From a virus, in IMG/VR virus record IMGVR_UViG_3300031566_000014, positions 14,511 through 78,510 of that record: a DNA stretch of 64,000 nt; one strand, given 5' to 3'. Shown piece by piece: positions 5,370 through 64,000 of this stretch. Positions within the stretch are counted from its first letter, which is position 1. Each line of letters opens with the position of its first letter. The notes beneath the pieces are model-generated. The model worked only from the letters and a program-made list of their open reading frames with translations. It did no database searches and had not been told where the DNA came from. Made by a program: the position numbers and the translations under genes.

Positions 5370-5867
5370 TCAAACCTTGCACGCCGCGAGCCGGCAATAG
5401 TCGCCCGCGCTCTTGTAGTACGTGCCGTGGTAGCGCCGGCCATTGCTCCCGCGCACTGACACCGGCACGCGGGTTCCGCCGAAGTTGTCGCGCCACTCGC
5501 GCCCGAATGATACCGCGCCGAGCACATCGCCCATCCAAGTCGTGATCTGGCCGGTCGACTCCTTGACATAGGCGAAGTATCGCACCGGCGGGTCAACGAG
5601 CCATTCGTATAACTCCATCTCTGAGCGCTCCTCATTCGTGATCTGCGCGTCTGCCGGCCACTGCGCGATCTCCGCGCTGGCAACGGCGCAGCGCCCCGCC
5701 CACATGGCCTCATGCCGAGCCGAGCGGGCCTTGCACTCCCTGTACTCTTCTGCCGTCAACATGTCCAGACTCCTACATGGGCCGGCCCCGGCGGGGGCCT
5801 TGAAGGAGTCAAGGTAGGCTCCTAATCCCGCGCGGGGCCGGCGACCACGATTGTCAGTTTTGGGCAT
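5370..5867 (-). CDS. hypothetical phage protein, first gene of leftward cluster
   Basis: GAAGGAG RBS before ATG 5867; ITTWMGDVLG...NGRRYHG...GDYCRL. Confidence 0.75.
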   Translation of the reverse strand: MPKTDNRGRRPRAGLGAYLDSFKAPAGAGPCRSLDMLTAEEYRECKARSARHEAMWAGRCAVASAEIAQWPADAQITNEERSEMELYEWLVDPPVRYFAYVKESTGQITTWMGDVLGAVSFGREWRDNFGGTRVPVSVRGSNGRRYHGTYYKSAGDYCRLAACKV

Positions 5868-5898
5868 TTCAGACTCCTTCAAGGCTACCTGTAGCACA

Positions 5899-5915
5899 AG
5901 CAATCCTCATGCCAA
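5899..5915 (-). promoter_or_regulatory. sigma54 (-24/-12) promoter for leftward early cluster
   Basis: Minus strand TTGGCATGAGGATTGCT closely matches YTGGCACGNNNNTTGCW, about 30 nt upstream of ATG 5867. Confidence 0.65.
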
Positions 5916-6499: not shown

Positions 6500-6600
6500 T
6501 GAATATAATAGTGAGATCGGGCGCTACCCGCATCGCCATAAGTCTAGCAGTAGCAAGGCGCTGCGCCCGTGGCTATACCATATAACTACTATTATATTCA
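6500..6600. repeat. 13-bp perfect AT-rich inverted repeat
   Basis: TGAATATAATAGT at 6500-6512, reverse complement at 6588-6600. Confidence 0.8.
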
Positions 6601-6823
6601 GGGCCGTGGGCGCTGGCCTCGCGCGAGGGTCGCGCACCCCCTGCGCACCAGCCGCGCACGATCTGCGCAGATTCCTCGATCATGCCCCTTGACAAACAGT
6701 GGGCGCGCGGGTACAGACTCATAGCTTGCGCTTGGGGTGCAGAAGGGGCCGGGGGCGTTAGGAAAAAAGGGGAAACCCCGCGCGATGCTACGTTATACGG
6801 GTCTGGTGCGGGGGTCTGGTTCC

Positions 6824-13865: not shown

Positions 13866-13939
13866 CGCCGGGTAGCTCAGCGGTAGAGCAAGAAGCCTCA
13901 TAAGCTTACGCGCAGGTTCGATTCCTGCCCCGGCGGCCA
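13866..13939 (+). tRNA. tRNA with CAT anticodon (Met-elongator or Ile2-like), atypical
   Basis: Acceptor CGCCGGG/CCCGGCG, D arm GCTC/GAGC, loop CTCATAA, T arm GCAGG-TTCGATT-CCTGC, encoded CCA. Confidence 0.8.
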
Positions 13940-14227: not shown

Positions 14228-14617
14228 ATGCCAGAGGCGAGCGTCTACGAGGCAATGCGGTGTCTCATCTGCACCCGCGAGCTTGACGGCCTCGAAAACC
14301 TGTCGCTCTACGGGCGGCGGAACATCACGGATCACTGGCTCCCTGGAATATGTGTGTTTTGTGCCCCACGGCTGCATAGGGCGTGGCGAAAGCCGAAAAT
14401 GACACCACGGAGCGGGGGGCCGCGCGAGCCATTGAGCGGGCTTCTGCGGCGGTGCGGGTGCGGGGCGATCCTTCGCAAGTGGCGGAAGAAGTGCAACGTG
14501 TGCGCGGGCGTGGCACGCAAGGCGACGTATCGTGCCGCGAACGCCCGACGGAAGCGGGGTACAACAAAACCTTTCCGCCGCCGGCGGCACGCGCGGAAAA
14601 GTCACGCAGCAGGGTAG
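14228..14617 (+). CDS. basic Cys-rich (Zn-binding) protein
   Basis: CLIC, CVFC, CGCG, CNVC; upstream TTGCAA-17-CATACT. Confidence 0.6.
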   Translation: MPEASVYEAMRCLICTRELDGLENLSLYGRRNITDHWLPGICVFCAPRLHRAWRKPKMTPRSGGPREPLSGLLRRCGCGAILRKWRKKCNVCAGVARKATYRAANARRKRGTTKPFRRRRHARKSHAAG

Positions 14618-14683
14618 AGAAGCGGCCTCTCGCCGGCCCCATAAGTCGGAGATACGTGGGTTCGACTCCCACCCCTGCCACCA
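14608..14683 (+). tRNA. tRNA-Met(CAT), initiator-like
   Basis: Acceptor AGCAGGG/CCCTGCC with 1:72 mismatch, A11:U24, loop CCCATAA, T arm GTGGG-TTCGACT-CCCAC, ACCA end. Confidence 0.8.
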
Positions 14684-48485: not shown

Positions 48486-50540
48486 ATGGAAGTTGACACC
48501 GACAAGGACATCGCCTCCTGGTCCGACGAGGAACTCGCGCGGGCCAAGAGCGAGTACGAGGCGAAGATGGCCGGCTTGCAGAGCAAGCTCTACAGCGCCC
48601 AGATCATCGGCGGCAACACGGCGGCCATGGAGGCGCTGAAGTATCAGGGGCGCGTGGCCAAGATCAACCAGGAGACGGCGAAGCGCAACGCCGCCGCAGT
48701 GAAGGGAGGGGAGGCCGCAGATGCCCAGAAGATGACGGCCCGCAGCATTCAACATCAGGGCCTGCGGGCGGCTGGGCGGACGCCGACCATGGCCCCGTCG
48801 ACTCCGAATGCTGGAGCGCCTCTTGCCGAGGCTTCGGCTGGCCCGCTGGCGCGGCCCGCTCCGCCGTCGGTGAGTGTTGCGGACTTCTTCGGGCGCGGGG
48901 CCGATGTGGGGCCGGCGGCCGGCGGGGGCACGTTCGCTTCGCTCGGCGAGGCCCCCTCGCAGGAGGGCGGCGGGGGGCAGACACTCTACACCACGCCAGC
49001 GCCCGCGCTTCTTCCCAACGCGCCGGCCCCACGGGCGCGCATGCCGCTGGGGGTAACGCCGCCGATGCAGCGGTACGATCGCGTGGCACCTGAGCCGCGC
49101 TCGCCCGCGCAGAGGGACATCGCCCATAGTGAGTACATCGTGAAGTTGGGGATGGCCGGCCTCATGGCCCCGCCGCACAACCTGACGGCGGAGCAGGCGC
49201 AGAAGCAGCTCGCAGTGGCGATGCAGCACCTCGAAGGCGTCAAGGCCATGGAGGGCGCCGTGGCGCCCCCTATCCCCGGAGTGGGGCAAGGGGTAGGGCA
49301 GGCCGTAGACGAGTTCGGCAACCCGCTACCCACAGAGGCCGACCTTGCCGCCGCTACCCCGCGCGTCGGTATCCCAGGCACATATCGCGGCGCGACGACC
49401 ATGGAGCAGACCAAGGCGGGGCAGGGGCAGTTCCTCGGAGCATATCAGAACGAGGCGCCGGGTATCAGTCACGGCGGCATGATTCCTGCCGCGCCCGCCG
49501 TTCCTGCCCGCGGCCCATTCGTCGAGGGCGGACCCGCCGAAGCTGTGCCCGCGCGACCTGCCCAGTTCATTGCCCCCACGGGCAGCGAGGCCGGTCCCGG
49601 CAGTTACGCCACATACCAGGGCACGCGGTTCATCCAGGACGAGAAAGGCGTCTGGCGCGCAAAGGGTAGCGCCAAGTGGCAGGCGACGGTGAAGAAGTTC
49701 CAAGCTGAAAAGGCTGCCACGGTTGCCGCCGAGGCGCAGAAGAAGCTCGATGAGGGCGCGGCCATGCCCGACTACGCCAAGGCTCAGTTGAAGGCCATCG
49801 ACGCGAGCCTGCCCGTCGTGGCGAAGCGGCTGAAACTGGGGCCGGTTGAGAAGGAAGCCTACCGCCAGCAGAAGCATGCGGAAGTCATCGGCAAGGTGTC
49901 CCACGAGATGGTGGTCGAGGGGGAGCAGTGGAACGAGCGGGCGGATAAGGTGGTGCAGCGGCAGAAGGACACCATCGACAAGACGGCGGTGTCCATCATG
50001 GCTGCCAATGAGCGGAAACTGGCGAACAAAGACCCCGTAATACAGATGACCGCTGACCCGAACATGACGTGGGACAATGCCTTGGCCGAAGCCAAGAAAC
50101 GTATCGGCAAGCCGCAACTGCCCGCGAAGTCGAAGCGCTTGCAGGCGTGGGAGAAGGTGTTCGGAGCCGTGACGACGGACTTCACGGAGCCTGAGCCGCC
50201 CGCGGCGGCCCCAGGGCCGACGCTTGGCGAACGCATCGGCGGATGGTTCAAGGGAACGCCGGTGGAGAGTGCGCCGGCTGCCGCTGGGGCAGCGGCGCCT
50301 GCGCCCGCGCCACCGGCGGCTGTGGCCCCGCAGCAAGCGCCGCCGCCGGCCTCTGTGCCGTATCAGGCAGCGGGCACTGCCCCTGGCGTGAATCCGCTCA
50401 TGAGGGCCGAGCCTACGGTGACGCTCAAGAACGGTGAAGCCGTACCACAGGCCAAGGTCGATCAGGCGCGGCAGGTAGCCGCTGGCGGTGGGCCGAAGGC
50501 CGCTGCTGCCCAAGCGTGGCTTGCGAAGTACGCCGACTGA
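48486..50540 (+). CDS. putative ejection protein
   Basis: 684 aa, Ala/Pro-rich with helical segments. Confidence 0.65.
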   Translation: MEVDTDKDIASWSDEELARAKSEYEAKMAGLQSKLYSAQIIGGNTAAMEALKYQGRVAKINQETAKRNAAAVKGGEAADAQKMTARSIQHQGLRAAGRTPTMAPSTPNAGAPLAEASAGPLARPAPPSVSVADFFGRGADVGPAAGGGTFASLGEAPSQEGGGGQTLYTTPAPALLPNAPAPRARMPLGVTPPMQRYDRVAPEPRSPAQRDIAHSEYIVKLGMAGLMAPPHNLTAEQAQKQLAVAMQHLEGVKAMEGAVAPPIPGVGQGVGQAVDEFGNPLPTEADLAAATPRVGIPGTYRGATTMEQTKAGQGQFLGAYQNEAPGISHGGMIPAAPAVPARGPFVEGGPAEAVPARPAQFIAPTGSEAGPGSYATYQGTRFIQDEKGVWRAKGSAKWQATVKKFQAEKAATVAAEAQKKLDEGAAMPDYAKAQLKAIDASLPVVAKRLKLGPVEKEAYRQQKHAEVIGKVSHEMVVEGEQWNERADKVVQRQKDTIDKTAVSIMAANERKLANKDPVIQMTADPNMTWDNALAEAKKRIGKPQLPAKSKRLQAWEKVFGAVTTDFTEPEPPAAAPGPTLGERIGGWFKGTPVESAPAAAGAAAPAPAPPAAVAPQQAPPPASVPYQAAGTAPGVNPLMRAEPTVTLKNGEAVPQAKVDQARQVAAGGGPKAAAAQAWLAKYAD

Positions 50541-50552
50541 TAGGAGCCTCCT

Positions 50553-53500
50553 ATGGGAGCGCTTGACGAACTTGATGCCATCGTCGGTGACGTGCCGCCG
50601 CCTGCGCAGGGACAGGCCCCCGCTACGGGCGGCAGCGCGCTGGCCGAATTGGACGCCATACTGCCGAAGCGCGCGGACGTTGCAGAGTACGCAGGCAAAG
50701 AGCGCTGGGCGGAAATGATCCCCTACGTTGGGCCCGCCGTTGGCCTCGAACGCCAGAGAATCACCCGCAATGCTGCCTTGGTAGCCGCCGGTGAGCAGCA
50801 AGAGCCTACCCCGGCTATTGTCCCGTTTCAAGCCGCTGGCGTCCCTGCTGGCGTCAACCCGCTTACCCGTCGAATGACTCCCGAATCGGCTCAGGGCATT
50901 CTAGCCAAGGATGCGGCCTACAATGAAATGATGGAGCGTGGGCTGACGCCGGGGGCGCAGATACTTCAGGGCGGCGCAAAGATGGTCGGCTACGCGACGG
51001 AAATCGCGGGTGGCGGCGGCATGGCAACATTGACGCGGGGTGCTGCCCGTAAGGGGCTTATGGCGATCCCCGGCATTGCGGTAGCGGCTGGCAAGCGTGG
51101 GATTGCTGGCACGCTCACGCGCGCTGGAATCAAGGTTGCTGGCAGGGTGGCTGGCGAAACTGCCCGTTCCCTCATCACGCCCAGCGCGCTCGCAGGCAAC
51201 TATGAGGACAGGACACGCCAAGGGCAAGGGCCTGGCACGGCGCTTGCTGGCGCCTTCCTGGATACCGTCATCGGCAATGTCGCGGAGCAGAGCGGCGAAG
51301 CCGTGCTGGGCGTCGCCGCCAAGATCGGCGCGAAGATACCTGTCATCGGCAAGGCCGTGACGCTCATCAACGGCGGACTGCGCAAGGCGTGGGCCAAGGC
51401 GGGCTTCTCGGCGGGTGCCTTCGATGCGGCAATGAAGGCCGGCGGCTGGAACGGCGTCATCGCGGAACTCACAGAGGAGCGCGTCGAGCCGTTCCTGAAA
51501 GCCGTGTTCCAGGGCGACGAATGGCGCAAGATCATCCCATCGCTTGAACAGTTGGGCGTCGAGGCGGCGGTGCTGTCCCTGCCCATGGCCCCCGGCATTG
51601 CGATGGGCACCATGCGCAACGCGGCGGGACGGGCTAAGGCCAAGGCCGAAGTCAAGAAGGAGATGGACCGCTTCGTTCACGACGCCATCGCCAAAGGGCT
51701 GGGCGAGGAAGTGGCTCCCCCGCCCCCGCAAGAGGAGGCGCCCCCCGCTCTGGACGAGGCGCAGCAGGCGGCCATGGCCGAGGCGCTGGCGCTTGAGAAG
51801 CAGGGCGTCGCTGCGCCCACGGCGGCTGAGGAACTGGACCAGATCACGGCGGCGCCCCCTGCCGTGGAAGCGCCCCCCCAGACGGCCCCAACTGCCCCCG
51901 AAACCACACCGACTGCCCCTGAGATGCCCGCGAAAGAGGCGGGCGCACAGCCGGTGGTATCAGAAGCCTTACAGGAACCCGCGACGCAGCAGGGGCCGTC
52001 TCCTGCCACCACAGGGGAGATTGCGGCACAAGCCCCCACCACGGAGCGCGCCCGCGTCCACGCCGAGTTCCGCCAGTCCTTCGCCAACCTCGCGCCCGCA
52101 GAGCAGGAGAGCACCCTCGCCATTGCCGACGCCATGGTATTCGCAACGGCGCGGGCCAGCGGCATTGACTCCGAAGATGTGTGGAAGCGGCTCAATTTCG
52201 CCGAGGGCGTGGCTACTGCGCCCGCGACTACCACGGAGGGCATGGCGGCGCTCAAGAAGAAGGGGCTGAAGGCCGTAGCCGTCACGGAACTGGCTGACAG
52301 CCTCAATGCCACGGTAAGGGCGCTCGACGCGCCCACGGTTGACGAGGCCATGCACGAGTTGGGCCATGTGGGCATGGTGTGGCTGCCTACGGACGTGCGC
52401 AAGCAGGCGGAGACGTGGGCGGGCGCGAAGTACGGCAAGTGGGACGTGCCGACGAAGGAGAAGTTCGCCAACGCATTCGTGGAATGGCTCAATGGCAGGG
52501 CACGCGCGCCCAAGGGCTTGGCTCGGGTGTTCAGCGACTTGAAGAAGTGGCTGACCAAGGTGTTCGGCTCGCTGCGCGCGGTGCAAGGGCTTGAGAAGCA
52601 AGAGGCAATCGAGCGGGTGTTCAAGTTCCTGACGGGGGAGGAGGCGGGCAAGGGCGCTGCGGCCCAGGCAGGTCCAAAGGGCGAGTCCCTGTTTGCGGTG
52701 CGCGATCCATGGGAACTGACCAAGGAGGACTATGTTGCTGAAGGTTCCTACGGGCTGCAACAGGCGGTGTTTACGCAGGCGTTCAATCAGGCCATCAAAG
52801 ACGAATACATGAGCGCTGAAAAGGACCGCGGCAAGGTGATGCGCCCGCATAAAATCGCCACGGTTGGCGACGCCCTTGCGCCCGAAGTGCTGGCGCTCTT
52901 CCCAAGGGAGTCCCATGGTGTCGAAATCTGGGTCGCGTCAAGGCTCAACGATGAGTCATTCAGCGGCTTTGCCATAGGTGGCCCAACGGAGGCCGGAGCT
53001 TACAGGATCGTGATGCACCCGCAACAGGCTGCGGCCCGCTACGTGCCCGGCCTGATGCACGAACTCAAACACCTGACAGACATTCTGGCTGGCAAAGAGA
53101 CGACGCCAACGGATGCCATCAGGCGGGAGAGTTACGCCGCATACCGGCGTCTGCCTAGCGAGCGCAGGGCGCGTCGGTTCGAGAAGTCTATGAACAACGC
53201 ATACGTTCATAGGCTGTTCATAGAGCGCGCCATAGAGCAGGGCCGGCAGATTCCACCGGACGTGCTCGCTGACTACCCAGACCTAGCTGGCAAGGGCGCG
53301 GCGGCTGGCGCGGGCGGGAAGCAGACGTTGTTTGCGACGAGGCCGGCTACCAACGAATCCGAACGCGACCGCATGGCCCCCGTGTGGTACTCGAAACTCT
53401 CGCAGGCCGTCGATACCAAGATGGGCGGGCGCGCGACGCCTCAGCAGCTCATGGGCATGCTCAAGGGCGCTGGCGTCAAGGACGAGGAAATCGAATGGAG

Positions 53501-56500
53501 CGGCCTGCCTGAGTTGCTCAAGGGCAAGGGCAGCGTGACGAAGGCCGAGGTGCAGGAGCACCTTGAGGCCAACGCAATCCAAGTGGTGGACGTGGTGAAG
53601 GGGGGGAGACCGTCTGGGGAGCCTCAATGGGCAGTCGTTGACGAGGATGGGCAGCCGCGTTTCAGCAGGCGCTTTGATACGGAGGATGAGGCGTGGGACT
53701 ATGCCGAGCGCTATCAAGGTGAGGACGAGCCGCCGCTTGATGTAGAACAGGTTCCCGGCACGGAAGCCCCTGCCACAAAGTTTTCTCAGTATCAGGCGGT
53801 GCCGGGTGGAGAAAATTACCGGGAACTGCTGCTTCAGATGCCGGCAGCGAAGAAGGCGATTGCACTAGAGCCAACAGTGCCCTTCAATGGAACAGGTGTT
53901 GCGTACCAGGACGGGTCGCGGCAGGTCCAAGGCGTCACAACGACCCCGTGGACCATCGGGTCAGAGCACGGCACGATCACCTACTGGCCATACCGATACG
54001 ACTGGAGCGCACAGCGCACTGGGGCGGAGTACGTCGTTGATTCTGAGAAGATGCAGAACGCCCACTTCAAGACGATGGAGGCCGCCGTGGCCGCTATCGA
54101 GAAGTCCTACGCGGGCACGCAGCGTGGCGAGGACATGGGGGCGTATCGTAGCGACGTGTTCACCGGCCAGCACTGGTCTGAACCCAACGTCCTCGCCCAC
54201 GTGCGCACGTCGGACTTCACGGACGCGCGGGGCAAGCGCGTGCTGGTGATTCAGGAGATTCAGTCAGACTGGCACCAGGAGGGAAGGGAGAAGGGATATG
54301 GGGGCGCGAACGTTCTAACGAAGCAAGACGCGGAGAGCCTGGGGTACTCTGTGCGCCGATCCGCGAGCAGTCGCGGGGGAAGCGCATACTTTCTGGACGG
54401 CCCGAACCTTCCGAGAGGAACCACCAATTACATCGGCTTCGAGACAGAGGCCGAAGCGTGGGACACGCTTGTTGCGAAGTTGCGGGCGCAGATGTCCGAA
54501 AACGCCGTCCCCAACGCCCCCTTCAAGAGCACGTGGCCCACGCTCGCAATGAAGCGAATGATCCGATGGGGCGCGGAGAACGGATACGACAGGATCGCGT
54601 GGAGCACGGGGGCGCAGCAGGCGGACGTGTACAGCCTTGCGACTGCCGTTGACAAGTTGACGTGGAACCCATCTGACGAACGGCCCGGTGGCAAGTATGT
54701 CTACGGAACGAAGGTTGGGCAAGGCGAAGTCGTCGGTATGGGCGTTGACGAACAGGGCAACATCGTCAACGCGAGCATGGACGAACTGAATGGCAAGCAC
54801 TTGTCAGATGCTATTGGCAAAGAGATGGCCGCTCGTGTCATGGCGGAGCCTCGTGGCGAACTCAGCGGCGAGGGCCTCAAGGTCGGCGGCCACGGCATGC
54901 GCGCCTTCTACGATCAGATGCTCGTCAACGAAACGAACAAGCTCGTCAAGCGATACGGAGCGAGGGTGGGGGAGGTGAAGCTGCTGACGATGGATAGCCC
55001 AGTAGGGCCGTTCCCTCTTGATATAGAGGTTCGTGGCGGCAAGTATTGGGTGGTGGATAGCAACAGGGCAAGGGCGTCCGAAGATTTTGGCAGCTATCAG
55101 GAAGCCGACGCACAGCGCCAGAGCATAATGGCGGCGGCGGCTGACGCGGCGAAGGGGCGTGGAAGAACCACCGTCCACGGATTCGACATCACGCCCGCCA
55201 TGCGCGACGAGGCGCTGGGCAAGGGCATGTCCCTCTTTGCCACGCGCCCAGACGAGGAGGGCAGGCCCAAGGGCGTCCCCGTCCCTGCTCTCGCCATGGC
55301 TATCACCCGTGGCCGCGCCTATCTCGATGACGGTGTGACCGACTTCCGCAAGTGGGCGGGTGCCATGGTGGGCGTCTACACGGAGAACATCAAGCCCTAC
55401 CTCGCGCCCATCTACGAGGCGCTGCGCACAGAGGGCACCCACGCCGACGCCATGACGCCACGCGAGAACATCCGCATCCCGCGAAGCCCCAAGGCGGGTA
55501 AGGCCCCCGGCACGGCGAAGCTCGTCACGCCCGAAGGCGGCACACCGCGCGTCGCCCTTGGCCCGCGCCCCACGCCATCGGGCGCCGCCTATCTCGCCGG
55601 CCTTGGCACATCCGAGGAAGCTCGCGCGGGCGTAGACGTGCTCGACACCGAGCGCGAGGAACGCCGCCGCGTGTCCCAACAGATCGCCATGCTCATCAAC
55701 CAGCGGAAGAAGTTCGAGGACGGGGCACCAGAGGCAGTAACGATTGACGAGCGTCTTGAGAAGTTGCGCGAGCGCGAGAATGCCCTGACGCTGGGCGGGC
55801 AGGTGCCGGCCTACGCGCAGACGCCCCTGAAGCCCCTTGAGGACGCCGCAGATGCCCGAGTCGCCGCCGACCCCGTGGCCGAGCGGGCGCGCATCGTCGG
55901 CATGGCCGCCGCCAATCAGGTGCCAGAGGCCGTTGACACGTACATCATGGACCGTCTCGTGGATCAGATCATCCCCGAAGTGCTGACGGCAGACCCCGCC
56001 GAGGTGCCGAACATCACCATCTTCTACGACTCGGTGCGGAAGTTGCGTGGCAACGTCGGCCTTGTCTTTCGCACGATGCAGGACAAGAAGCTGTCACCCG
56101 CTCAGCGCAGGCTCCGCGCTATCTCAGAGGCCATTGCCTTCCCCGCGAAGCCGTGGCTCGACAAGATGGCCGCCGCCGAGAAGGCCGGCAACATGGCCCT
56201 CGTGGCACAACTGCGGAAGCAGCGCGACGAGGAACTCATCGCCTTCCGCGCTATCCTTGCCAAGCACGGCGTGGACCCGAAGAACCTGGGCAAACTCAGT
56301 AAAGACCGTCGCAAGGCCGCCGCCATCCACCGCGAGATGATCACCAGCCGCTCAGGCGGGTGGGACGTGGTGCAGGAACTCTACCGCAATATCCTGCTCT
56401 CGGGCACACCGACGCACAGCGCCAACTTCTTCTCCAACAGCGCCTTCTTTGCTTACCACTTCGGCATCCGCGAGTCGCTTACTGCCCTGTGGAACTCCGC

Positions 56501-58130
56501 CACGGGCGCGAAGGAAGGCACCCACCTGTCTGATCTCAAGCACATGCTCGACTTCACCAGTACGCTCGGGCCGGCCATAGCCGACGCCTATCGCAATGCC
56601 ATCGAGACGTTTGTCACAGAGATACCCACGATGGAGGAGTTGCACGGCGAGGAAGGGCAGGCCAAGTTTGTCGAGGGCGGCGTCGCCATCGCAGGCAAGA
56701 AGGGCAGGGCCATCCGCTATCCGCAGCGCTGGCTCATGGCAATGGATGACTTCGCCGTGACCCTCGCCGCGCGGATCAAGGTCGCCATGGTGGCCCACCG
56801 CATGGCCGTCAACGAGGGCTTCAAGGGCGCGGAACTCACCGAGCGCATGCAGGCGCTCATCGCGGACCCCGTATCCCCAGCGTGGAAGAAGGCTATCGAG
56901 CTTTCCCAGGAAGTCACGTTCAAGGGCAAGCCCGACCCCTTCGCCCAGTGGGTGATCAATATCCGCAAGAAGCATCGCTGGGCCTACTTCTCCTTCCCCT
57001 TCATCACGACCCCCGCGCACATCGCCGTAACGGGCATGAAGATGTCGCCCTACCGCCTGCTGCGGCACCTTGCCCTGCCTTACACGGCGGGCGTAGCGGC
57101 CATCACGGGCGACTGGAGCCGAGTCAAGAACTCACTGGCAGGCCACAAGATTGCTGCCGATCTCATTTCCGCCGGCCTCCTGTGGCTCATCATCGGCCAG
57201 GACGACGACGACCCGTGGATTACGGGCAAGGACGGGATCAACGGCCAGAACCGCTACAGCATCAAGATCGCAGGCCAGTGGTGGTCATACTACCGCATCG
57301 AGCCGTTCGCAACTGCCCTCGCCGCCACGGTTGACCTTGGCAGAGGCATCAAGTCGGGCGACCCGTCCGTGGCCGTCCGCGAAGGCTCCATGGGCTTCCT
57401 TCAGCAGATGGGCGACAAGACCTACTTCCAAGGCATCCAAGACCTCTATCGCGCCGTGGGCGAACCCGTAGCGGGCAGGGCAGACCTTGTTGATTCTCTC
57501 GCCACCTATGCCAGCCGCTTCGCGTCCTCGTGGGTGCCCAACTTCATCAAGGCACCCGCCCGCGCCTTGCAGGCCACGATCAAGGAACGCCGCGCCTACG
57601 GCAAGCCCGGCACCCGAGCCGGCCTGCTTCTCGGTCAACGGGCGCTTCAGCAAGCCGAGCTTGCCCCCGGCCTCGACCATCCACGATACGACATGTGGGG
57701 CCGCCCAATGCTCCGCGACGGCTCCCCGTGGAACTACGCCGCAACGGACTTCCTGTGGCGAATGATCGCCCCCGCCCAAGTCGGAAAGACCCAACCCTAT
57801 GTCGGCGATGTGATGGTCTACAACTGGAACCGCCTGCATCCCATGGATGAGTTCCACCCCCGGCCGCCCGACCGCTCCCTGACATGGCGTGGCAAGAAAG
57901 CCTACATGGACGACGCCACGTATGAGAAGTTCATGCAGGAAGTGGGGACGCGCACCAAGGCTGGCTTCGATGCGTGGTTCGCCGTGGCAGAGCGCTACGG
58001 CGCGACACTCGACCCGCAGAACCCCTCGCCCGAAATGAAGAACCAACTAGAGAGTATCCGCGAGAGGGCTACTAATGCGGCGCGCGCCGTCGTGATCAGA
58101 ATGATGGCGGAGCGCGGCGAGTTGAAGTAG
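50553..58130 (+). CDS. large polyvalent / ejection protein
   Basis: 2525 aa; HELGH and HELKH motifs; WYSKL, GGENYRELLL, EIQSDWHQ block; LPD38-like SYYRIEPFA near C-terminus. Confidence 0.8.
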   Translation: MGALDELDAIVGDVPPPAQGQAPATGGSALAELDAILPKRADVAEYAGKERWAEMIPYVGPAVGLERQRITRNAALVAAGEQQEPTPAIVPFQAAGVPAGVNPLTRRMTPESAQGILAKDAAYNEMMERGLTPGAQILQGGAKMVGYATEIAGGGGMATLTRGAARKGLMAIPGIAVAAGKRGIAGTLTRAGIKVAGRVAGETARSLITPSALAGNYEDRTRQGQGPGTALAGAFLDTVIGNVAEQSGEAVLGVAAKIGAKIPVIGKAVTLINGGLRKAWAKAGFSAGAFDAAMKAGGWNGVIAELTEERVEPFLKAVFQGDEWRKIIPSLEQLGVEAAVLSLPMAPGIAMGTMRNAAGRAKAKAEVKKEMDRFVHDAIAKGLGEEVAPPPPQEEAPPALDEAQQAAMAEALALEKQGVAAPTAAEELDQITAAPPAVEAPPQTAPTAPETTPTAPEMPAKEAGAQPVVSEALQEPATQQGPSPATTGEIAAQAPTTERARVHAEFRQSFANLAPAEQESTLAIADAMVFATARASGIDSEDVWKRLNFAEGVATAPATTTEGMAALKKKGLKAVAVTELADSLNATVRALDAPTVDEAMHELGHVGMVWLPTDVRKQAETWAGAKYGKWDVPTKEKFANAFVEWLNGRARAPKGLARVFSDLKKWLTKVFGSLRAVQGLEKQEAIERVFKFLTGEEAGKGAAAQAGPKGESLFAVRDPWELTKEDYVAEGSYGLQQAVFTQAFNQAIKDEYMSAEKDRGKVMRPHKIATVGDALAPEVLALFPRESHGVEIWVASRLNDESFSGFAIGGPTEAGAYRIVMHPQQAAARYVPGLMHELKHLTDILAGKETTPTDAIRRESYAAYRRLPSERRARRFEKSMNNAYVHRLFIERAIEQGRQIPPDVLADYPDLAGKGAAAGAGGKQTLFATRPATNESERDRMAPVWYSKLSQAVDTKMGGRATPQQLMGMLKGAGVKDEEIEWSGLPELLKGKGSVTKAEVQEHLEANAIQVVDVVKGGRPSGEPQWAVVDEDGQPRFSRRFDTEDEAWDYAERYQGEDEPPLDVEQVPGTEAPATKFSQYQAVPGGENYRELLLQMPAAKKAIALEPTVPFNGTGVAYQDGSRQVQGVTTTPWTIGSEHGTITYWPYRYDWSAQRTGAEYVVDSEKMQNAHFKTMEAAVAAIEKSYAGTQRGEDMGAYRSDVFTGQHWSEPNVLAHVRTSDFTDARGKRVLVIQEIQSDWHQEGREKGYGGANVLTKQDAESLGYSVRRSASSRGGSAYFLDGPNLPRGTTNYIGFETEAEAWDTLVAKLRAQMSENAVPNAPFKSTWPTLAMKRMIRWGAENGYDRIAWSTGAQQADVYSLATAVDKLTWNPSDERPGGKYVYGTKVGQGEVVGMGVDEQGNIVNASMDELNGKHLSDAIGKEMAARVMAEPRGELSGEGLKVGGHGMRAFYDQMLVNETNKLVKRYGARVGEVKLLTMDSPVGPFPLDIEVRGGKYWVVDSNRARASEDFGSYQEADAQRQSIMAAAADAAKGRGRTTVHGFDITPAMRDEALGKGMSLFATRPDEEGRPKGVPVPALAMAITRGRAYLDDGVTDFRKWAGAMVGVYTENIKPYLAPIYEALRTEGTHADAMTPRENIRIPRSPKAGKAPGTAKLVTPEGGTPRVALGPRPTPSGAAYLAGLGTSEEARAGVDVLDTEREERRRVSQQIAMLINQRKKFEDGAPEAVTIDERLEKLRERENALTLGGQVPAYAQTPLKPLEDAADARVAADPVAERARIVGMAAANQVPEAVDTYIMDRLVDQIIPEVLTADPAEVPNITIFYDSVRKLRGNVGLVFRTMQDKKLSPAQRRLRAISEAIAFPAKPWLDKMAAAEKAGNMALVAQLRKQRDEELIAFRAILAKHGVDPKNLGKLSKDRRKAAAIHREMITSRSGGWDVVQELYRNILLSGTPTHSANFFSNSAFFAYHFGIRESLTALWNSATGAKEGTHLSDLKHMLDFTSTLGPAIADAYRNAIETFVTEIPTMEELHGEEGQAKFVEGGVAIAGKKGRAIRYPQRWLMAMDDFAVTLAARIKVAMVAHRMAVNEGFKGAELTERMQALIADPVSPAWKKAIELSQEVTFKGKPDPFAQWVINIRKKHRWAYFSFPFITTPAHIAVTGMKMSPYRLLRHLALPYTAGVAAITGDWSRVKNSLAGHKIAADLISAGLLWLIIGQDDDDPWITGKDGINGQNRYSIKIAGQWWSYYRIEPFATALAATVDLGRGIKSGDPSVAVREGSMGFLQQMGDKTYFQGIQDLYRAVGEPVAGRADLVDSLATYASRFASSWVPNFIKAPARALQATIKERRAYGKPGTRAGLLLGQRALQQAELAPGLDHPRYDMWGRPMLRDGSPWNYAATDFLWRMIAPAQVGKTQPYVGDVMVYNWNRLHPMDEFHPRPPDRSLTWRGKKAYMDDATYEKFMQEVGTRTKAGFDAWFAVAERYGATLDPQNPSPEMKNQLESIRERATNAARAVVIRMMAERGELK

Positions 58131-58161
58131 CCCCACCCCCTAGCTTGCGGGCGGGGGCTGC
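58127..58161. terminator. GC hairpin at the convergence of the late operon and the pentamer array
   Basis: GTAGCCCCACCCCC-TAGCTTGC-GGGCGGGGGCTGC. Confidence 0.5.
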
Positions 58162-58890
58162 CTCGCCTTGCCTTGCCGTAGCGATGCATGGTCATGCCGG
58201 GCCTTGCCTCTGCCGGGCCGTGCCTGTCTCCGCCTCGGCTCGGTTGCGCTCTGCCCAGCCATGCCACCGCCGGTCACCGCTGGCCAAGGCAGTGCCTCAG
58301 CGTCGGGCTGCTGCGCATCGCCGTCGCTGCGGTTGCCATGCGCTTCCGGTGCCATGCCTCCCGTGGCCTCGCTCCGCCCCCGCCAAGTAGTGCAGCGCAG
58401 TCCCGTGCTATCGCTCCGCCACGCCAAGCGACGCATCGCGCCGCCATGGCTCAGCTTGGCTCTCCACGCCCCCGCGGCGCTAGGAGCCGCATCGCCACGG
58501 CAATGCAAGGCACCGCCAAGCGCGGCCTGGCCTTGCCCCTGCCTTGGGTCGCATCACCTCGCCGTCTCTGTGCTTGGCATTGCCCCGCCGGGCCGTGCGG
58601 CGCCGTGCCGTCTCTGTGCTTTGCTTCGCGGCGACGGGCGTCCGTTGCCACTCACTGCCTCAGCATCGCGGTGCACTCCTCCGCTGCGCCGTTGCTAAGC
58701 GCCGAGCCGCGCAGCAGCGCCCCTGCGGCGCAAAGTGCGGCTCCGCGGGGCTGCGCCCCGCCGTTGCCGAGCGCCGCCGGACTCAGCGTGGTTCCGCAGC
58801 ACATCGCCATCGCCTCGTAGCGCAAGGTTGCGCGTGGCCTCGACTGGCGCAGCCATCGCGGCGCCCCGCAAGTCCGATCTGGGCACCGCC
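58158..58890 (-). ncRNA. NGC-NN pentamer-periodic array (candidate guide-RNA locus)
   Basis: Minus strand reads GGCGG TGCCC ... GGCAA GGCAA GGCGA GGCAG; ~140 units in ~23 blocks, each usually closed by a hexamer; no credible ORF. Confidence 0.8.
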
Positions 58891-58956
58891 CTAGCCTGTC
58901 ACCTCCTTGGCCTTCGCCAGAGTCACCTCGGCGGTGAAGGCTCCGTGGCCCGCATT
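58891..58956 (-). pseudogene. orphaned original 3' end of the RAMP gene
   Basis: Encodes NAGHGAFTAEVTLAKAKEVTG*, paralogous to NSGMGRF of the RAMP Gly loop. Confidence 0.75.
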
Positions 58957-58959
58957 CAC

Positions 58960-58988
58960 TTGACAGCATCCTTTCCCTGTGATAGAAT
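58960..58988 (+). promoter_or_regulatory. sigma70 promoter for HNH gene (likely leaderless mRNA)
   Basis: TTGACA-17-TAGAAT with TG extension; ATG 6 nt downstream, no RBS. Confidence 0.8.
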
Positions 58989-58994
58989 GACGGC

Positions 58995-59543
58995 ATGCAT
59001 TACCATCGCCGCGAGCCAAAGGTTCTTCGTACATGCGAACATTGCGGCAAGCGATTCATCGTACTCGCGAACCGCATCAGATACAAAGCGTGCAGATTTT
59101 GTAGCCATAGGTGCTACATAGCGTCCTTTGGTCCACGAAGCAAGCGAGTGATATGCCCAATGTGCGGCACAGAGTTTACTGTGCAGATGCATGTTGTGCG
59201 TAAGACTGTGTGGGGGCCATTCTGTTCTCGCCGGTGCTATGGCAAGTGGAGAAGCGCTCATGTGAAGGGCGATAACTGCTCCTGGTGGCGTGGCGGGAAG
59301 ACCGTGTACTACCAAGGGCATTGGAAACGACAACGCCAAGCCGCGAAACGGCGCGACAATTGGACGTGCCAGTCGTGCCATAGAACATTCGCGCCGCGTA
59401 GCCGCGGAATTGACGTCCACCATGTAATCCCCTACACCGTGGGCCAAGACCCGGAGATTGCGCACGCCCTCGACAACCTCATTTCGCTTTGTCGGCAGTG
59501 TCATAATGCACTGCACCGGGGGCAAGAACGCACTCGTGAATAA
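58995..59543 (+). CDS. HNH homing endonuclease with Zn-finger repeats
   Basis: CEHCG..FCSHRC, CPMCG..FCSRRC, WWRGG, RDNWTCQSC, DVHHVIP, NLISLCRQCHNALH; lower GC. Confidence 0.9.
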   Translation: MHYHRREPKVLRTCEHCGKRFIVLANRIRYKACRFCSHRCYIASFGPRSKRVICPMCGTEFTVQMHVVRKTVWGPFCSRRCYGKWRSAHVKGDNCSWWRGGKTVYYQGHWKRQRQAAKRRDNWTCQSCHRTFAPRSRGIDVHHVIPYTVGQDPEIAHALDNLISLCRQCHNALHRGQERTRE

Positions 59544-60261
59544 ATCTACCCATTCCGGAATTCCTCCACTGCCCCAACCCGCGAAGCTGTCCGTAGTCGA
59601 ACCACTCCTGCACCATCGGAAGCAGTTCCTTCCGCAGCAGCTTCACTTGGAACCGCAGCATGGTCCCAGCGGGCACGCTCTGCGAACGGGCCAGCGCCAC
59701 GCGCTCGCCCTGGGCCGTCTGCGCGCGAAGCGGGCGCTCGCAGTACCCGATCTCTGCGCCTTCCGGCAGTTCCAGCCGAATGCGGCGCGGCGTCACGAAG
59801 ATCAGGCCGTCGATCTCCTTCTTGTACGCCTTGAGCTTCTTGCTCTCCGTGCCGTCAGCCCGCCGCAGCATCCCGCAGGCGTCCTTGAAAAAGCCCTTCA
59901 CGGTGTAATCGTACACGAACGGGCAGCCGTCAGCATCCTGCATGAAGACGGTCGTGCCCAGGGCGATCTCCTCGTCCACGGGGATGGCCTCAGACTCGTC
60001 CTCGGCCTCGCCGTTGTCGGGCCGCTTCGACTCCACGAAGGTCTTGTACACCTCCTTGTCGCCGGGCGAGGTGCCCAACATCTGCTCCGTCAGCGTCAGG
60101 ATCACGTCCAGAGTAAGGAAGCCGTTGCGTTTCGCGGCTGCCGTCGCCAGCGCTTCCGATACGGGGGCGGCGCTGCCGCCGGCACCCGGAGTCACTACCT
60201 CGTGCTCCGCGTGCGCGCTCCGGGGCACCTGCCTGTGTTTCGCCATTCCCAATTCCGCCAT
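59479..60261 (-). CDS. solitary RAMP / Cas7-like RNA-binding protein
   Basis: AGGAG RBS; LTLTEQMLGT strand, YTVKGFFKDAC helix, ERPLRAQT..GER thumb, SVPAG, terminal Gly-rich loop GLGQWRNSGMGRF. Confidence 0.8.
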   Translation of the reverse strand: MAELGMAKHRQVPRSAHAEHEVVTPGAGGSAAPVSEALATAAAKRNGFLTLDVILTLTEQMLGTSPGDKEVYKTFVESKRPDNGEAEDESEAIPVDEEIALGTTVFMQDADGCPFVYDYTVKGFFKDACGMLRRADGTESKKLKAYKKEIDGLIFVTPRRIRLELPEGAEIGYCERPLRAQTAQGERVALARSQSVPAGTMLRFQVKLLRKELLPMVQEWFDYGQLRGLGQWRNSGMGRFIHECVLAPGAVHYDTADKAK

Positions 60262-60356
60262 GTCACGTCTCCTATGCAGCCTGGTCGTGTGTGTCGGCAA
60301 GCGGACGGCTGCTTCCCGCTTGCCTCTTGCGGGCGCGCCGCTCGGCGCGTTCCCTG

Positions 60357-60596
60357 TCAGCTTCTCCTCACGGAGTCCACGATGGCGTCGAGATGCGCGT
60401 CGGATAGGCGCGGCGGATGCTTCCGCGTTTCCTCGGCCTGGCGCGCGAGTTCGGCGGCGATGCGCTCCTGCCAGTCGGCGGGCTTGGCGGGGCCGGTGCC
60501 GCGCCACTTGGTCTTGCGCTCGCGCATCAGCTTGGCGCCCTCGCGGCGCGCCCGGCTCCGAGCGGCCTTGGCCCAGGGGCAGGGGCGGGGCTTCAT
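60357..60596 (-). CDS. small basic hypothetical protein
   Basis: Coupled ORF upstream of the RAMP gene. Confidence 0.5.
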   Translation of the reverse strand: MKPRPCPWAKAARSRARREGAKLMRERKTKWRGTGPAKPADWQERIAAELARQAEETRKHPPRLSDAHLDAIVDSVRRS

Positions 60597-60751
60597 TGCT
60601 CGTCCTCCTCATCCACGGGTTCGCACAGCACATCCTCCTCGGCGTCGAAGGCGTCGCACGGCTCCGCGCATGCGGGGATGTAGTCGTGCTCGCCATAGTG
60701 CGGGCAGCCGCCAGCTTCGCACGTCTCCCAGCGCGGGCATCTGACTCTCAT
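60593..60751 (-). CDS. small Cys/His-rich protein
   Basis: AGGAGG RBS; CPRWETC..CPH..H..C..C. Confidence 0.55.
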   Translation of the reverse strand: MRVRCPRWETCEAGGCPHYGEHDYIPACAEPCDAFDAEEDVLCEPVDEEDEQ

Positions 60752-61074
60752 GGCGCGTCCTCCTTTCCCTCCGCCTTCCGGCGAGACGTGCGGGCGGCCT
60801 TGGCGGCTCCCCAGGCTCTCCACCCGTCTGTGTCCATGGCCTTCCTGTGCTCTGGCGACGGCAACGCATCTCGATAGGCGTCAAGCGCGTTCGCGTGCTG
60901 CCACGTCATCGTCAGCGCCCGCTCGTAGGCGGCGAAGGCGAGCTTGACGGCGGGGTGAAGATAAGGCTTCCGCCAATCGCAGCACATGCTTGGGCACACC
61001 CACCAGGCGTCTCCTGTGTGGATATCGTCCACGAAGATGTAGACGTTCTTGTCACCGCACTTTGGGCACCTCAT
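60748..61074 (-). CDS. Zn-ribbon hypothetical protein
   Basis: MRCPKCG...CPSMCC; AGGAGG RBS. Confidence 0.6.
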   Translation of the reverse strand: MRCPKCGDKNVYIFVDDIHTGDAWWVCPSMCCDWRKPYLHPAVKLAFAAYERALTMTWQHANALDAYRDALPSPEHRKAMDTDGWRAWGAAKAARTSRRKAEGKEDAP

Positions 61075-61099
61075 GATGAGAGCCTCCTAATTCCTACGA

Positions 61100-61378
61100 T
61101 CATCGGCTCTCCTCCTTCTTTGGCAGCGCCGACACGCAATGCACGCGCGTCCCGTCGAGCCAGTAGACGGACCCCGTGGAACCCTTGACGCGGAAGCGAG
61201 GGAAGTACTCGTTGTTCTCCACGACGACCGCGAAGCGCATGTCGTCGCCGTGGAAGTAGGCGACTTCGGTGCCAGGCGGGAACGCCTTCTTGCACGCTGC
61301 CGCCTCGCGCTCCTGGGCGTCTCTGCGGGCGCAATAAGCCTTCTGGTAGACGGCCAGAGCATGCTGTTCTTGGGTCAT
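61100..61378 (-). CDS. hypothetical protein
   Basis: Start MTQEQ after AAGGAGG. Confidence 0.6.
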   Translation of the reverse strand: MTQEQHALAVYQKAYCARRDAQEREAAACKKAFPPGTEVAYFHGDDMRFAVVVENNEYFPRFRVKGSTGSVYWLDGTRVHCVSALPKKEESR

Positions 61379-61671
61379 CGGCTGTCCTCCTTCGGTTGCG
61401 CGGCCTCGCGCCGCGCCCTCATGAATGCGACTTCCTCCCTCTGTGTGTGCTCGACCGCCCCGGCCGCGAGCGCCTCGCCCCGCTTGCGTTCCGTGAGATC
61501 GTAGTGAGCCTTGTACGTCCCCCTCGCCTGACACCATGCCGAGCGCAGGCCAATGAGCAGGGCGAACCCGTCGAGCTCCCATGGCGTGTCGGCGTAGAGG
61601 TGGGCCGCGTGCCGCCAGCGCCAGTTCGCATTCGGACAGCAGGGGAACGGCGGGCCGACGTAGACTGCCAT
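61375..61671 (-). CDS. DUF4031 family protein
   Basis: MAVYV...HLYADT..EL..FA..IGL...W.Q...HYDLT..KR..A...GA. Confidence 0.85.
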   Translation of the reverse strand: MAVYVGPPFPCCPNANWRWRHAAHLYADTPWELDGFALLIGLRSAWCQARGTYKAHYDLTERKRGEALAAGAVEHTQREEVAFMRARREAAQPKEDSR

Positions 61672-61674
61672 CGG

Positions 61675-62358
61675 TCAACACTCCTTCGGTTCCTCGACCA
61701 CCTCGAAGCGACACCGCCAGAACCACTCGTTGGCGGCCAGAAGCTCCGCGACGGGCCGCTTGAGCACCGCCGCCAGCATCGTGTGGTAGCTGGCGAGCGC
61801 GGTGGCGCACGGTCGGAGTCGCAGGCCGTAGTTCACCCACATGTCCGAATGGGGCGGCTTCAACCGTTCCACCAACTCCTCGATGGCGTCCTGCTCCGTG
61901 CGGCACAGGAGCCTCTGAGGCTCGGCGCTGAGGCACAGGAGCCACTGCGTAGCCGCCCGCGAGGGCAGGCAGTAGGAGGAGCAGCGGCGCCATTGGATGT
62001 TGTACTGTGAGAGTTCGTCCAACGATGCGTGGTAGACCCAGCCCCCGGCACCTTGGAATCTCTTGGTGAACTCGTCCCAGCACCACTGCTTGTCGATGCT
62101 CCGCCAATGCGGCACCCCGACGTGGTAGACCTTGCCACGGCGGTAGCGGGGCTTATAGATGCGCGGGGAGTCCATTCTGCCGTCCGGCAGCCAGAACGCC
62201 CAGTGGTCCGGCTCATGGTTGTAGAGGTCGGCATACAGGCCGGGCAGATTGGCAGGCTGGTCCTTCATCTCCCGGCTCGTCTGCACGATGTCGCCAAGCT
62301 CGCGGGCGAGCACTAGCGGCGCCTTGGGCCATCCGAAGCCGATGCAGGGGGTCGTCAT
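61675..62358 (-). CDS. ASCH/PUA-like phage protein
   Basis: QTSR, PRY..G, LPSRAA, EPQRL...TEQDAIEE, NEWFWRCRFEVV. Confidence 0.6.
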   Translation of the reverse strand: MTTPCIGFGWPKAPLVLARELGDIVQTSREMKDQPANLPGLYADLYNHEPDHWAFWLPDGRMDSPRIYKPRYRRGKVYHVGVPHWRSIDKQWCWDEFTKRFQGAGGWVYHASLDELSQYNIQWRRCSSYCLPSRAATQWLLCLSAEPQRLLCRTEQDAIEELVERLKPPHSDMWVNYGLRLRPCATALASYHTMLAAVLKRPVAELLAANEWFWRCRFEVVEEPKEC

Positions 62359-62630
62359 TTCGTGGCCTCCTTGTCATTCCGCTCATTGAGCCGCCGCTGC
62401 GTGTCGAGCGCCTTGCGGCGTTCCGTTTCGAGTTGGGCCGTGTCGATTCCCAGGAACTCGTAGAGCAGGCCGTCGATCTGAGATTCCATGGCCATGCGCC
62501 AGTCTTGAGTTCCGCAGTCTTGCTCCAGGCACAGGACCGCCTTGCGGGCGCGGCAATAGTCCAGGAATCCCTTGATGCCAATGAACTGAGCGCGCTCCGC
62601 CGCCCACTTGTCAAGCATTTCTCGCCCCAT
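62355..62630 (-). CDS. hypothetical phage protein
   Basis: IDGLLYEFLGID..QLETERRKALD. Confidence 0.65.
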   Translation of the reverse strand: MGREMLDKWAAERAQFIGIKGFLDYCRARKAVLCLEQDCGTQDWRMAMESQIDGLLYEFLGIDTAQLETERRKALDTQRRLNERNDKEATK

Positions 62631-62648
62631 TTCGGCCCTTCCTTTCTT

Positions 62649-63317
62649 TCAGAACTCGCACTCGGCGCACAGGCCCTTGCCCCTGGCGTACAGCGCCTTT
62701 GACACGGCCTTCCCGCACTTGCAGCAGTGCAGCGGCTTTGGCGGCTCCCCGCCATCGTTCCCATCTGTCGCCAGGTGGTCGGCCCACGTGACCCACGCGC
62801 CGCACTCCTCGCACCAGACGACGTGCTCGCACAGGTCGTACTCGTTCGGATAGGTGTCGTCGCACGTCGGGCAGTAGATCCCCCGACCCTCCGAAGCGAT
62901 GCGGTCGTTGAAGGGGCTGAGCACGCCGGGCAGCAGTTGGAGCGGCTGGCGCAGCAACCGATAGCCCATGGCCCTCAGTTCCGCGGGCGAGAGCGCGGGG
63001 CCGTCGCACACGCCGCCGTTCGTCACGGGGAAGCCCGGCTCTACCCACAGGTACGACTTGGGCTGGCCCTTCAGTTGCCCGTGCACATAGGCGTAGCCCC
63101 CGCCGCCCGATTGCTCCAAGCACAGCAGCCCGAACTTCTTGGACCAGTTGCAGTCGTGTTCGTGGACATAGCCCTTGTCGTCGGCGGTGAACACAGAGAA
63201 GGGCTTGAGGCCGTCGTAAACGATCACCACGATGCGCTCCGGTTCCTTCTCGGCCCCATAGACGGGCGCGAACGGCAGACCATCGGTCTGCCACGGCTGG
63301 ACGGTCCACTTGTTCAT
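62649..63317 (-). CDS. multi-Zn-finger hypothetical protein
   Basis: CPTC, CEHVVWCEECG, CCKCG, CAEC. Confidence 0.65.
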   Translation of the reverse strand: MNKWTVQPWQTDGLPFAPVYGAEKEPERIVVIVYDGLKPFSVFTADDKGYVHEHDCNWSKKFGLLCLEQSGGGGYAYVHGQLKGQPKSYLWVEPGFPVTNGGVCDGPALSPAELRAMGYRLLRQPLQLLPGVLSPFNDRIASEGRGIYCPTCDDTYPNEYDLCEHVVWCEECGAWVTWADHLATDGNDGGEPPKPLHCCKCGKAVSKALYARGKGLCAECEF

Positions 63318-63778
63318 TGCGGGCCTCTCTTTCTTCGCTTCCTTCGCTTGGCCGCCTTGTCGTGGTCGGCGAAGGGCAGTTCCCAGTTCTCGATCACCTT
63401 GTTCCAGTTGATCGCCGCTTCCGACGCCTGCGCGTGCCCGGCCACGAATAGGCGCCGCACCGACTCTCTGACGTGCGGCAATAGCAAGACTTGAGGCCCG
63501 CGTTTCGGGCTGTCGGGGCCGTCTAATTCCTTGTCCCATCCCTGCTTGCGGCAGTACTCCGCTTCGCGCGGGTCTACCGCATCGCCCTTGCCGAACAGGA
63601 AGCAGATTGGCGGTGTCAGGAACATCCACTCCGTCACGGCGCATTCGAGGCAGTAGCCTTCTGGCGTTGCCGAGAGCCGCAGAAGCCGGGCCTTGGGATC
63701 CGGCCCGCCGCCTACCCGCAGCGGAACGCCGCAACGCGAACACGAGCCGACGAGTCCAAGCGATTGCTGTTCGTTCAC
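63314..63778 (-). CDS. Zn-finger hypothetical protein
   Basis: CSRCG...CLEC; INWNKVIENWELPF. Confidence 0.6.
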   Translation of the reverse strand: MNEQQSLGLVGSCSRCGVPLRVGGGPDPKARLLRLSATPEGYCLECAVTEWMFLTPPICFLFGKGDAVDPREAEYCRKQGWDKELDGPDSPKRGPQVLLLPHVRESVRRLFVAGHAQASEAAINWNKVIENWELPFADHDKAAKRRKRRKRGPQ

Positions 63779-64000
63779 TGGGGCCGCTCCCTTCTCCTGT
63801 TGCGGCTGCCCACCGCCGCGTCGAGCGCGAGGTAGAGCAAGTCCCACGGGCCGCGCGTCTTGCGGCGGAAGCTCGCCACCGTCGAGTGCTTCCACGCCTC
63901 AGAGGGGCGCCCCCATTTCGAGAACGTCGCTTCGTAGGCGCCGACCGTGCCCTGCTCGGACACGCCCTTGAGGCTGATCGTCGCCGTGCCCATGTGGCGG
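63775..64000 (-). CDS. hypothetical protein (probably 5'-truncated by window edge)
   Basis: WDLLYLALDAAVG.RN motif. Confidence 0.55.
   Translation of the reverse strand, partial: RHMGTATISLKGVSEQGTVGAYEATFSKWGRPSEAWKHSTVASFRRKTRGPWDLLYLALDAAVGSRNRRRERPQ

Follow-up and report, generated by a model that had tools for sequence, protein, structure and literature searches.

VIPR systems, described in 2026, are phage-borne and CRISPR-related, and mediate RNA-guided DNA binding by a Vipr protein in combination with a vrRNA composed of GGY/NN pentamers (bioRxiv 10.64898/2026.04.26.720920 and 10.64898/2026.04.26.720927). Vipr is an ancestral phage RAMP of ~20 kDa, and the NN bases of the vrRNA read double-stranded DNA, with one base skipped per unit, silencing rival mobile elements. 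The filament contains one protomer per repeat and six subunits per turn. H17 and D177 recognize G1 of the repeat, R138 and W178 hold G2, and the pocket for Y3 shuts out purines. In type II systems, every pentamer is bound by a single Vipr protomer, which holds the constant G-Y and presents N4 and N5, giving an NN-skip-NN-skip reading of double-stranded DNA. Six accessory genes (vap) have been named for the seven VIPR types. The Methods of the first preprint list the relaxed repeats NNNGG, YNNNG, and NNNNG, and the legend of its fig. S18 describes staggered arrays, in which neighboring vrRNAs overlap by 1 nt, the end of one being the start of the next (bioRxiv 10.64898/2026.04.26.720920). In that preprint, RNA sequencing did not confirm the staggered architecture.

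The stretch of DNA analyzed here, referred to as the window, covers the final 64 kb of an IMG/VR virus record of 78.5 kb. The phage has a GC content of 64% and was recovered from soil metagenomes; the sequencing runs listed as containing the sequence are soil DNA metagenomes, with no RNA run among them. A megablast search of positions 50000-64000 against phage records returned no match. The minus strand of this region carries a small RAMP gene, vipr, and next to it, on the same strand, a tract of pentamers of a consensus related to GGY with variable NN (Table 1). The tract is likely to be a staggered vrRNA array of a VIPR system, located downstream of vipr and containing ~22 separate guides. 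The array in this phage is real and tidy and belongs to the class published in 2026; the class, the code, and, as far as the figure legend describes it, the array style are already known. The locus is encoded by a virus and contains neither CRISPR repeats nor other cas genes; none were found near vipr by Pfam and PADLOC searches of the neighboring genes. On the opposite side of the array, a 2525-residue open reading frame (50553-58130, plus strand) converges on it, and a GC-rich imperfect hairpin is located at ~58129-58159. The product of this reading frame has weak PHROG matches to a giant 'endolysin' family and an internal virion protein, and contains no Pfam domain. Elsewhere in the window, two tRNA-Met (CAT) genes (13866-13939 and 14608-14683) lie 0.7 kb apart.

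Table 1 Features of the vipr locus (positions refer to the window).
Feature	Position	Strand	Remarks
Candidate vrRNA array	58157..58896	minus	144 N-G-C-N-N units in ~22 blocks; 21 six-nt units (+1 register shifts)
Paired blocks sharing the 15-nt ending AAGCACAGAGACGGC	58561..58621	minus	Neighbors; copies at 58561 and 58607
Remnant of the original vipr 3' end	58894..58936	minus	...TAEVTLAKAKEVTG, then TAG 58893-58891; severed from the gene
HNH homing-endonuclease cassette	58937..59560	plus	Gene 58995-59543, Pfam HNH E=2.9e-11
vipr gene (Cas7-like RAMP), present form	59479..60195	minus	Start uncertain (GTG 60195 or ATG 60261); last 20 codons from the inserted cassette

A preliminary description of the tract, made from the sequence alone, presented it as an array of pentamers punctuated by hexamers, and it was right in all essentials. 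The autocorrelation analysis of GC dinucleotides that it proposed has been carried out on the minus strand of the tract: lags of 5 and 10 are enriched 2.5-fold and 2.3-fold, respectively, and a lag of 4 is nearly absent (0.04-fold). The lag-5 count per 200 nt peaks at 23 in the tract; the median for the window is 2, and the highest count outside the tract is 11. No second period-5 tract was found elsewhere in the 64-kb window, upstream of vipr, or in the whole 78.5-kb genome. The chain of 114 GC dinucleotides advances in steps of 5 (63 occurrences), 10 (23), 6 (20), and 11 (3). A tolerant parse divides the tract into units comprising 121 pentamers, 21 hexamers, and two tetramers; the period averages 5.14. 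Within the units, position 2 is G in 89% and position 3 is C in 88%; position 1 is G in 43%, and positions 1, 4, and 5 are almost uninformative, the information at N4 and N5 being near zero. As stated in the preliminary description, the tract is not a slippage microsatellite, because 70 of the 121 pentamers have distinct sequences and Tandem Repeats Finder calls no repeat in it. It is not a CRISPR array either: the tract contains no identical direct repeats of 23–50 nt separating unique spacers, and no long direct repeats. The 15-nt internal duplicate that had been reported occurs exactly at the two positions listed in Table 1.

The hexamers divide the tract into blocks that are mostly 5–10 units (26–51 nt) long, with an overall range of 4–10 units and 6–7 units being the commonest. 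This range for most blocks replaces the 16–46 nt initially given. A GGC start is found in 18 of the 21 units that follow a hexamer and in 33 of the 120 other units (Fisher p=6e-7); the earlier claim that blocks restart with this triplet holds. The same bias appears when no parse is imposed: on the minus strand, the base 5' of GC is G after 19 of 21 six-nt steps and after 25 of 50 five-nt steps, whereas on the plus strand the test gives no G bias after six-nt steps. A few junctions are irregular (58659-58640 and 58342-58322). The first hexamer, GGCTAG, includes the ancestral stop codon of vipr. The junction N6-G-G-C would fit the sharing of 1 nt between neighboring guides, with G after 19 of 21 six-nt steps, as judged against the published legend. 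The +1 slips are consistent with the staggering as worded in that figure legend, on which their equation is based.

The product of vipr has a core of ~200 residues. Its structure, predicted by AlphaFold from 21 homologues, has a pLDDT of 77, and a Foldseek search of the PDB with this model returned only Cas7-type RAMPs, namely type VII Cas7, Csm3, Cmr4, and Cas7-11, with E values of 2.6e-8 to 1e-5 and TM scores of 0.5–0.63. By its predicted fold, the protein is therefore a Cas7-like RAMP, and the model has the features of a small single-RRM RAMP with a G-loop and a thumb. No Pfam or PHROG family was found for the protein, and a sequence search of the PDB with the Vipr family profile gave only weak matches to Csm4 and Cas7. 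Its relatives number 360 in viral contigs, at ~50% identity, and only four among deposited phage records, all of them uncultured. The G-loop G-x-G-Q-W-R-N-S-G-x-G-R-F is invariant in the family. The reference locus of phage SUSP1 was located in KT454805, and hhalign aligned residues 26-226 of the protein with residues 1-194 of SUSP1 Vipr, collinearly over the full length, with 27% identity and E=0.0043 but a probability of only 8%. In this alignment, the SUSP1 loop GVGDWRPRFGRF is matched with GLGQWRNSGMGRF, after which the vipr product ends with 20 further residues; the G-loops read GVGDWR and GLGQWR, respectively. A tblastn search from the vipr family at 1e-5 did not reach SUSP1. D177 and H17 of SUSP1 Vipr correspond to Q and T in this clade, and the W and R are conserved. 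Upstream, positions 60262-60696 form part of an open reading frame that continues in frame with vipr, is rich in Arg and Pro, and has no relatives. This segment is probably non-coding high-GC sequence, so that the true start of vipr is likely to be near 60195 or later.

In the present phage, vipr and the array are separated by the HNH cassette, the gene of which is preceded by a near-consensus promoter (58960-58988, 11 of 12 positions matching). The cassette has exchanged the last 14 original residues of Vipr for 20 unrelated ones. In a contig from another soil sample (run X3), which lacks the cassette, position 58936 is linked to 59561 through 18 divergent letters. The joined vipr frame in X3 reads ...GQWRNSGCGRYTAEVTLAKAKEVTG* and ends at the TAG of 58893-58891, one base ahead of the first GGC unit. 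The cassette is also absent from the relatives inspected, in which the array follows directly after the vipr stop codon. Because vipr abuts the array in the X3 variant without the cassette, the ancestral layout had the array immediately behind vipr, which is also the layout of the relatives. From the same comparison of sequences, the HNH gene is a mobile insertion that is polymorphic in nature and replaced the tail of Vipr. Three substitutions are listed between the arrays of X3 and of this phage (58733, 58734, and 58754), all of them at N4 or N5.

The pairing of gene and array is conserved, with hundreds of phage contigs showing it. Most of the 80 related loci that were fetched, including those of phages with 40–50% GC, have a period-5 array next to the vipr homologue and on its strand; where loci were read in detail, the stop codon of vipr marks the beginning of the array. 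The mean period is 5.13–5.2 across all arrays, and eight relatives also show the two-level grammar of pentamers and hexamers, with p values between 5e-4 and 5e-10. In a group of gut phages, the junction RGCAAR followed by GGCAT is conserved and the blocks are 31 or 36 nt long. In the arrays of this group, after position 6640 of loci L051, L045, L006, L047, and L012, A occupies position 4 in ~70–85% of the units (R-G-C-A-N), which leaves fewer free positions than the published GGY/NN, and the reading rule may differ. In one gut-phage group (L008-L023), pentamer arrays flank vipr on both sides (~5569-5903 and 6544-6798), as in SUSP1.

The preliminary description had also suggested a comparison of related phages for the gain and loss of blocks. 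Among the closely related phages of loci L009, L011, L014, L015, L018, L023, and L031, some blocks are common and others are present, absent, or replaced as a whole, and the differing blocks are bounded by junctions of a hexamer and GGC. Among 51 distinct arrays, 58% of the starts of similarity segments are located between -6 and 0 nt relative to a block boundary and 38% of their ends between -1 and +5 nt, with ~21% expected in each case; these counts are not independent, as related arrays repeat identical break points. The differences between related blocks and variants are mainly at N4 and N5. The exchange of whole blocks supports the interpretation, drawn from comparison of the arrays, that the blocks are separate guides. 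The proposal that hexamers bound individual guides of a RAMP thus gains support from the predicted fold of the neighboring gene product, the conserved pairing, the VIPR preprints, and the block-wise turnover. The analogy to CRISPR repeats that accompanied it is loose, since the blocks are set apart by a shift of the register by one base and not by a repeat. The genes next to vipr in the window have no homologues at the 80 related loci, and the neighbors of vipr in the relatives are not shared, so that no candidate accessory gene was found; a vap gene is not strictly defining, the preprint stating that it is 'typically' present.

The way in which guides could be delimited may follow from the junction itself. 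In N6-G-G-C, the first G would serve in two registers, as position 2 of the old one and position 1 of the new one, and such a dual-register G would constitute the 1-nt overlap, so that blocks restart with GGC. The purine that would then stand on position 3 of the old register could not enter the pyrimidine pocket, and the filament would stop and a new one start. The outcome would be ~22 separate guides of 5–10 units each, reading targets of 14–29 bp. The Q and T residues at the G1 contacts fit, as far as sequence comparison goes, a relaxed position 1 (a YNNNG-type repeat) with G2 and C3 kept. With less than even confidence, we propose that the register shift itself delimits the guides, by phasing of Vipr on a repeat-free transcript, and that the changes of D to Q and H to T freed position 1 in parallel. 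The shared G would close one filament and open the next, host RNases would trim the exposed junctions, and the system would need neither a Cas6-like nuclease nor a ribozyme or a tail. The role of the array is probably the silencing of rival mobile elements.

The tract could instead be a single continuous vrRNA covered by one long Vipr filament, in which the extra base is a bulge formed approximately once per helical turn and does not mark a guide boundary. The six subunits per turn of the published filament agree with the commonest block length of 6–7 units; however, the variation of blocks from 4 to 10 units is not that of a fixed ruler, the blocks are exchanged as cassettes among related phages, and the old-register position reserved for a pyrimidine is occupied by a purine in the G-G-C of the junction. 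This arrangement is considered unlikely. There is also only a slim chance that the tract is a true VIPR array that has become inactive in this phage after an HNH cassette of opposite orientation entered the 3' end of vipr, split the array from the gene, and replaced the Vipr C-terminus by unrelated residues. The part of Vipr from the G-loop through GRF is retained, C-terminal tails vary freely in relatives, and the grammar of the array is intact and free of decay. Moreover, the insertion looks recent, because the recovered parts of the X3 array are nearly identical to those of this phage.

Two readings of the tract that do not involve a guide RNA fare worse. GC steps at every half helical turn could provide a protein-binding or packaging site at the level of DNA, and the mean period shared by all arrays lends itself to this, since 2 x 5.14 is 10.3 bp. 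Such a role is highly improbable and was rejected owing to the strand asymmetry of the pattern and its linkage to vipr, as the arrays always lie on the coding strand of the RAMP gene and begin at its stop codon; furthermore, the variable positions are those of the published guide RNAs. That the tract encodes a protein is practically ruled out. Open frames exist on both strands, for example that of 58188-58820 (plus strand, 210 residues), but the GC content is flat across codon positions (0.71/0.72/0.75), unlike that of real genes, there is no Pfam match, the periodicity is 5 rather than 3, and the block lengths are not multiples of 3; the flat GC content and the lack of a Pfam match led to the rejection of a coding function. 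The sole Rfam match, to the SAH riboswitch, was sub-threshold (E=0.83) and was taken as chance.

Targets of putative guides were sought in several sequence sets. In the phage's own genome and in L002 and L003, scans with skip rules of 0–2 bases and two or three variable bases per unit gave no excess over shuffled guides. When 120 blocks of gut phages were compared with 0.9 Mb of related loci, no signal was obtained except for period-5 matches of arrays to arrays. Exact-pattern scans according to the published 1-nt-skip rule gave no matches for guides 58854, 58808, and 58496, and nine and twelve scattered matches for guides 58537 and 58762, respectively. Guide 58609 has one viral, nine metagenome, and eleven genome matches, five of which represent one repeated actinobacterial element from soil Actinomycetota MAGs. 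In this element, all 18 variable bases match (18/18) within an FtsK/SpoIIIE-like gene (L094:6376-6401, and L096, L095, L084, and L091), and the skipped base is codon position 2; the element was rejected as a target, because the match is at chance level and no other guide converges there. Guide 58537 matches at 16/16 bases, in frame and with the skip at the wobble base, within the portal gene (phrog_156) of a 46-kb phage whose genome is complete and has 63.5% GC (G001:C1:15971-15993; L105/L125). This candidate was also rejected, as none of the other 18 guides scores above shuffled controls there. The numbers of matches for the six guides scanned are near the estimated chance expectation. Read as degenerate peptides, the guides contain no recognizable motif.

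Of the VIPR architectures, the staggered array is the least tested; the locus probably adds a clean natural case of it, with ~22 guides in a soil phage of high GC content. The comparative evidence added here is that +1 junctions bound the units of guide gain and loss, and it offers a simple testable rule for guide delimitation without repeats. The co-variation of protein and RNA, with the G1 contacts lost and G1 relaxed, could aid the engineering of Vipr scaffolds. Added here are the proposed junction logic, the cassette-wise turnover of blocks, the co-variation of the G1 contacts with position 1, and the HNH polymorphism.

The locus shares its protein fold with the Cas7/Csm3 backbone of class 1 CRISPR systems and would resemble it in a filament whose protomers each cover a fixed number of nucleotides and in base flipping induced by the thumb. 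By contrast, the class 1 period is 6 nt with five paired bases, the guide has no constant bases, repeats cut by Cas6 delimit the guides, and further Cas proteins as well as an adaptation module belong to the system; the locus has none of these. The type II VIPR system of the Escherichia phage SUSP1 has in common with this locus a Vipr of ~200 residues with a G-x-G-x-W-R...G-R-F loop, units with a constant G-Y and two variable bases, and an array on the strand of vipr. Unlike here, SUSP1 has four separate vrRNAs of ~100 nt, each made up of 9–16 GGYNN repeats together with a leader and a 3' pseudoknot tail that is conserved; its G1 is strict and contacted by D177 and H17, in the place of which this clade has Q and T; and it has vap1, which was not found at this locus. 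The closest resemblance in architecture is to the staggered VIPR arrays, which, according to the published legend, also lack tails, ribozymes, or repeats between guides; their guides overlap by 1 nt, as the putative guides of this locus would, and in both cases, a solo small RAMP gene of a phage adjoins a pentamer array. The array described here differs from them in being long, with ~22 guides, in belonging to a soil phage with 64% GC, and in the presence of an HNH cassette between vipr and the array.
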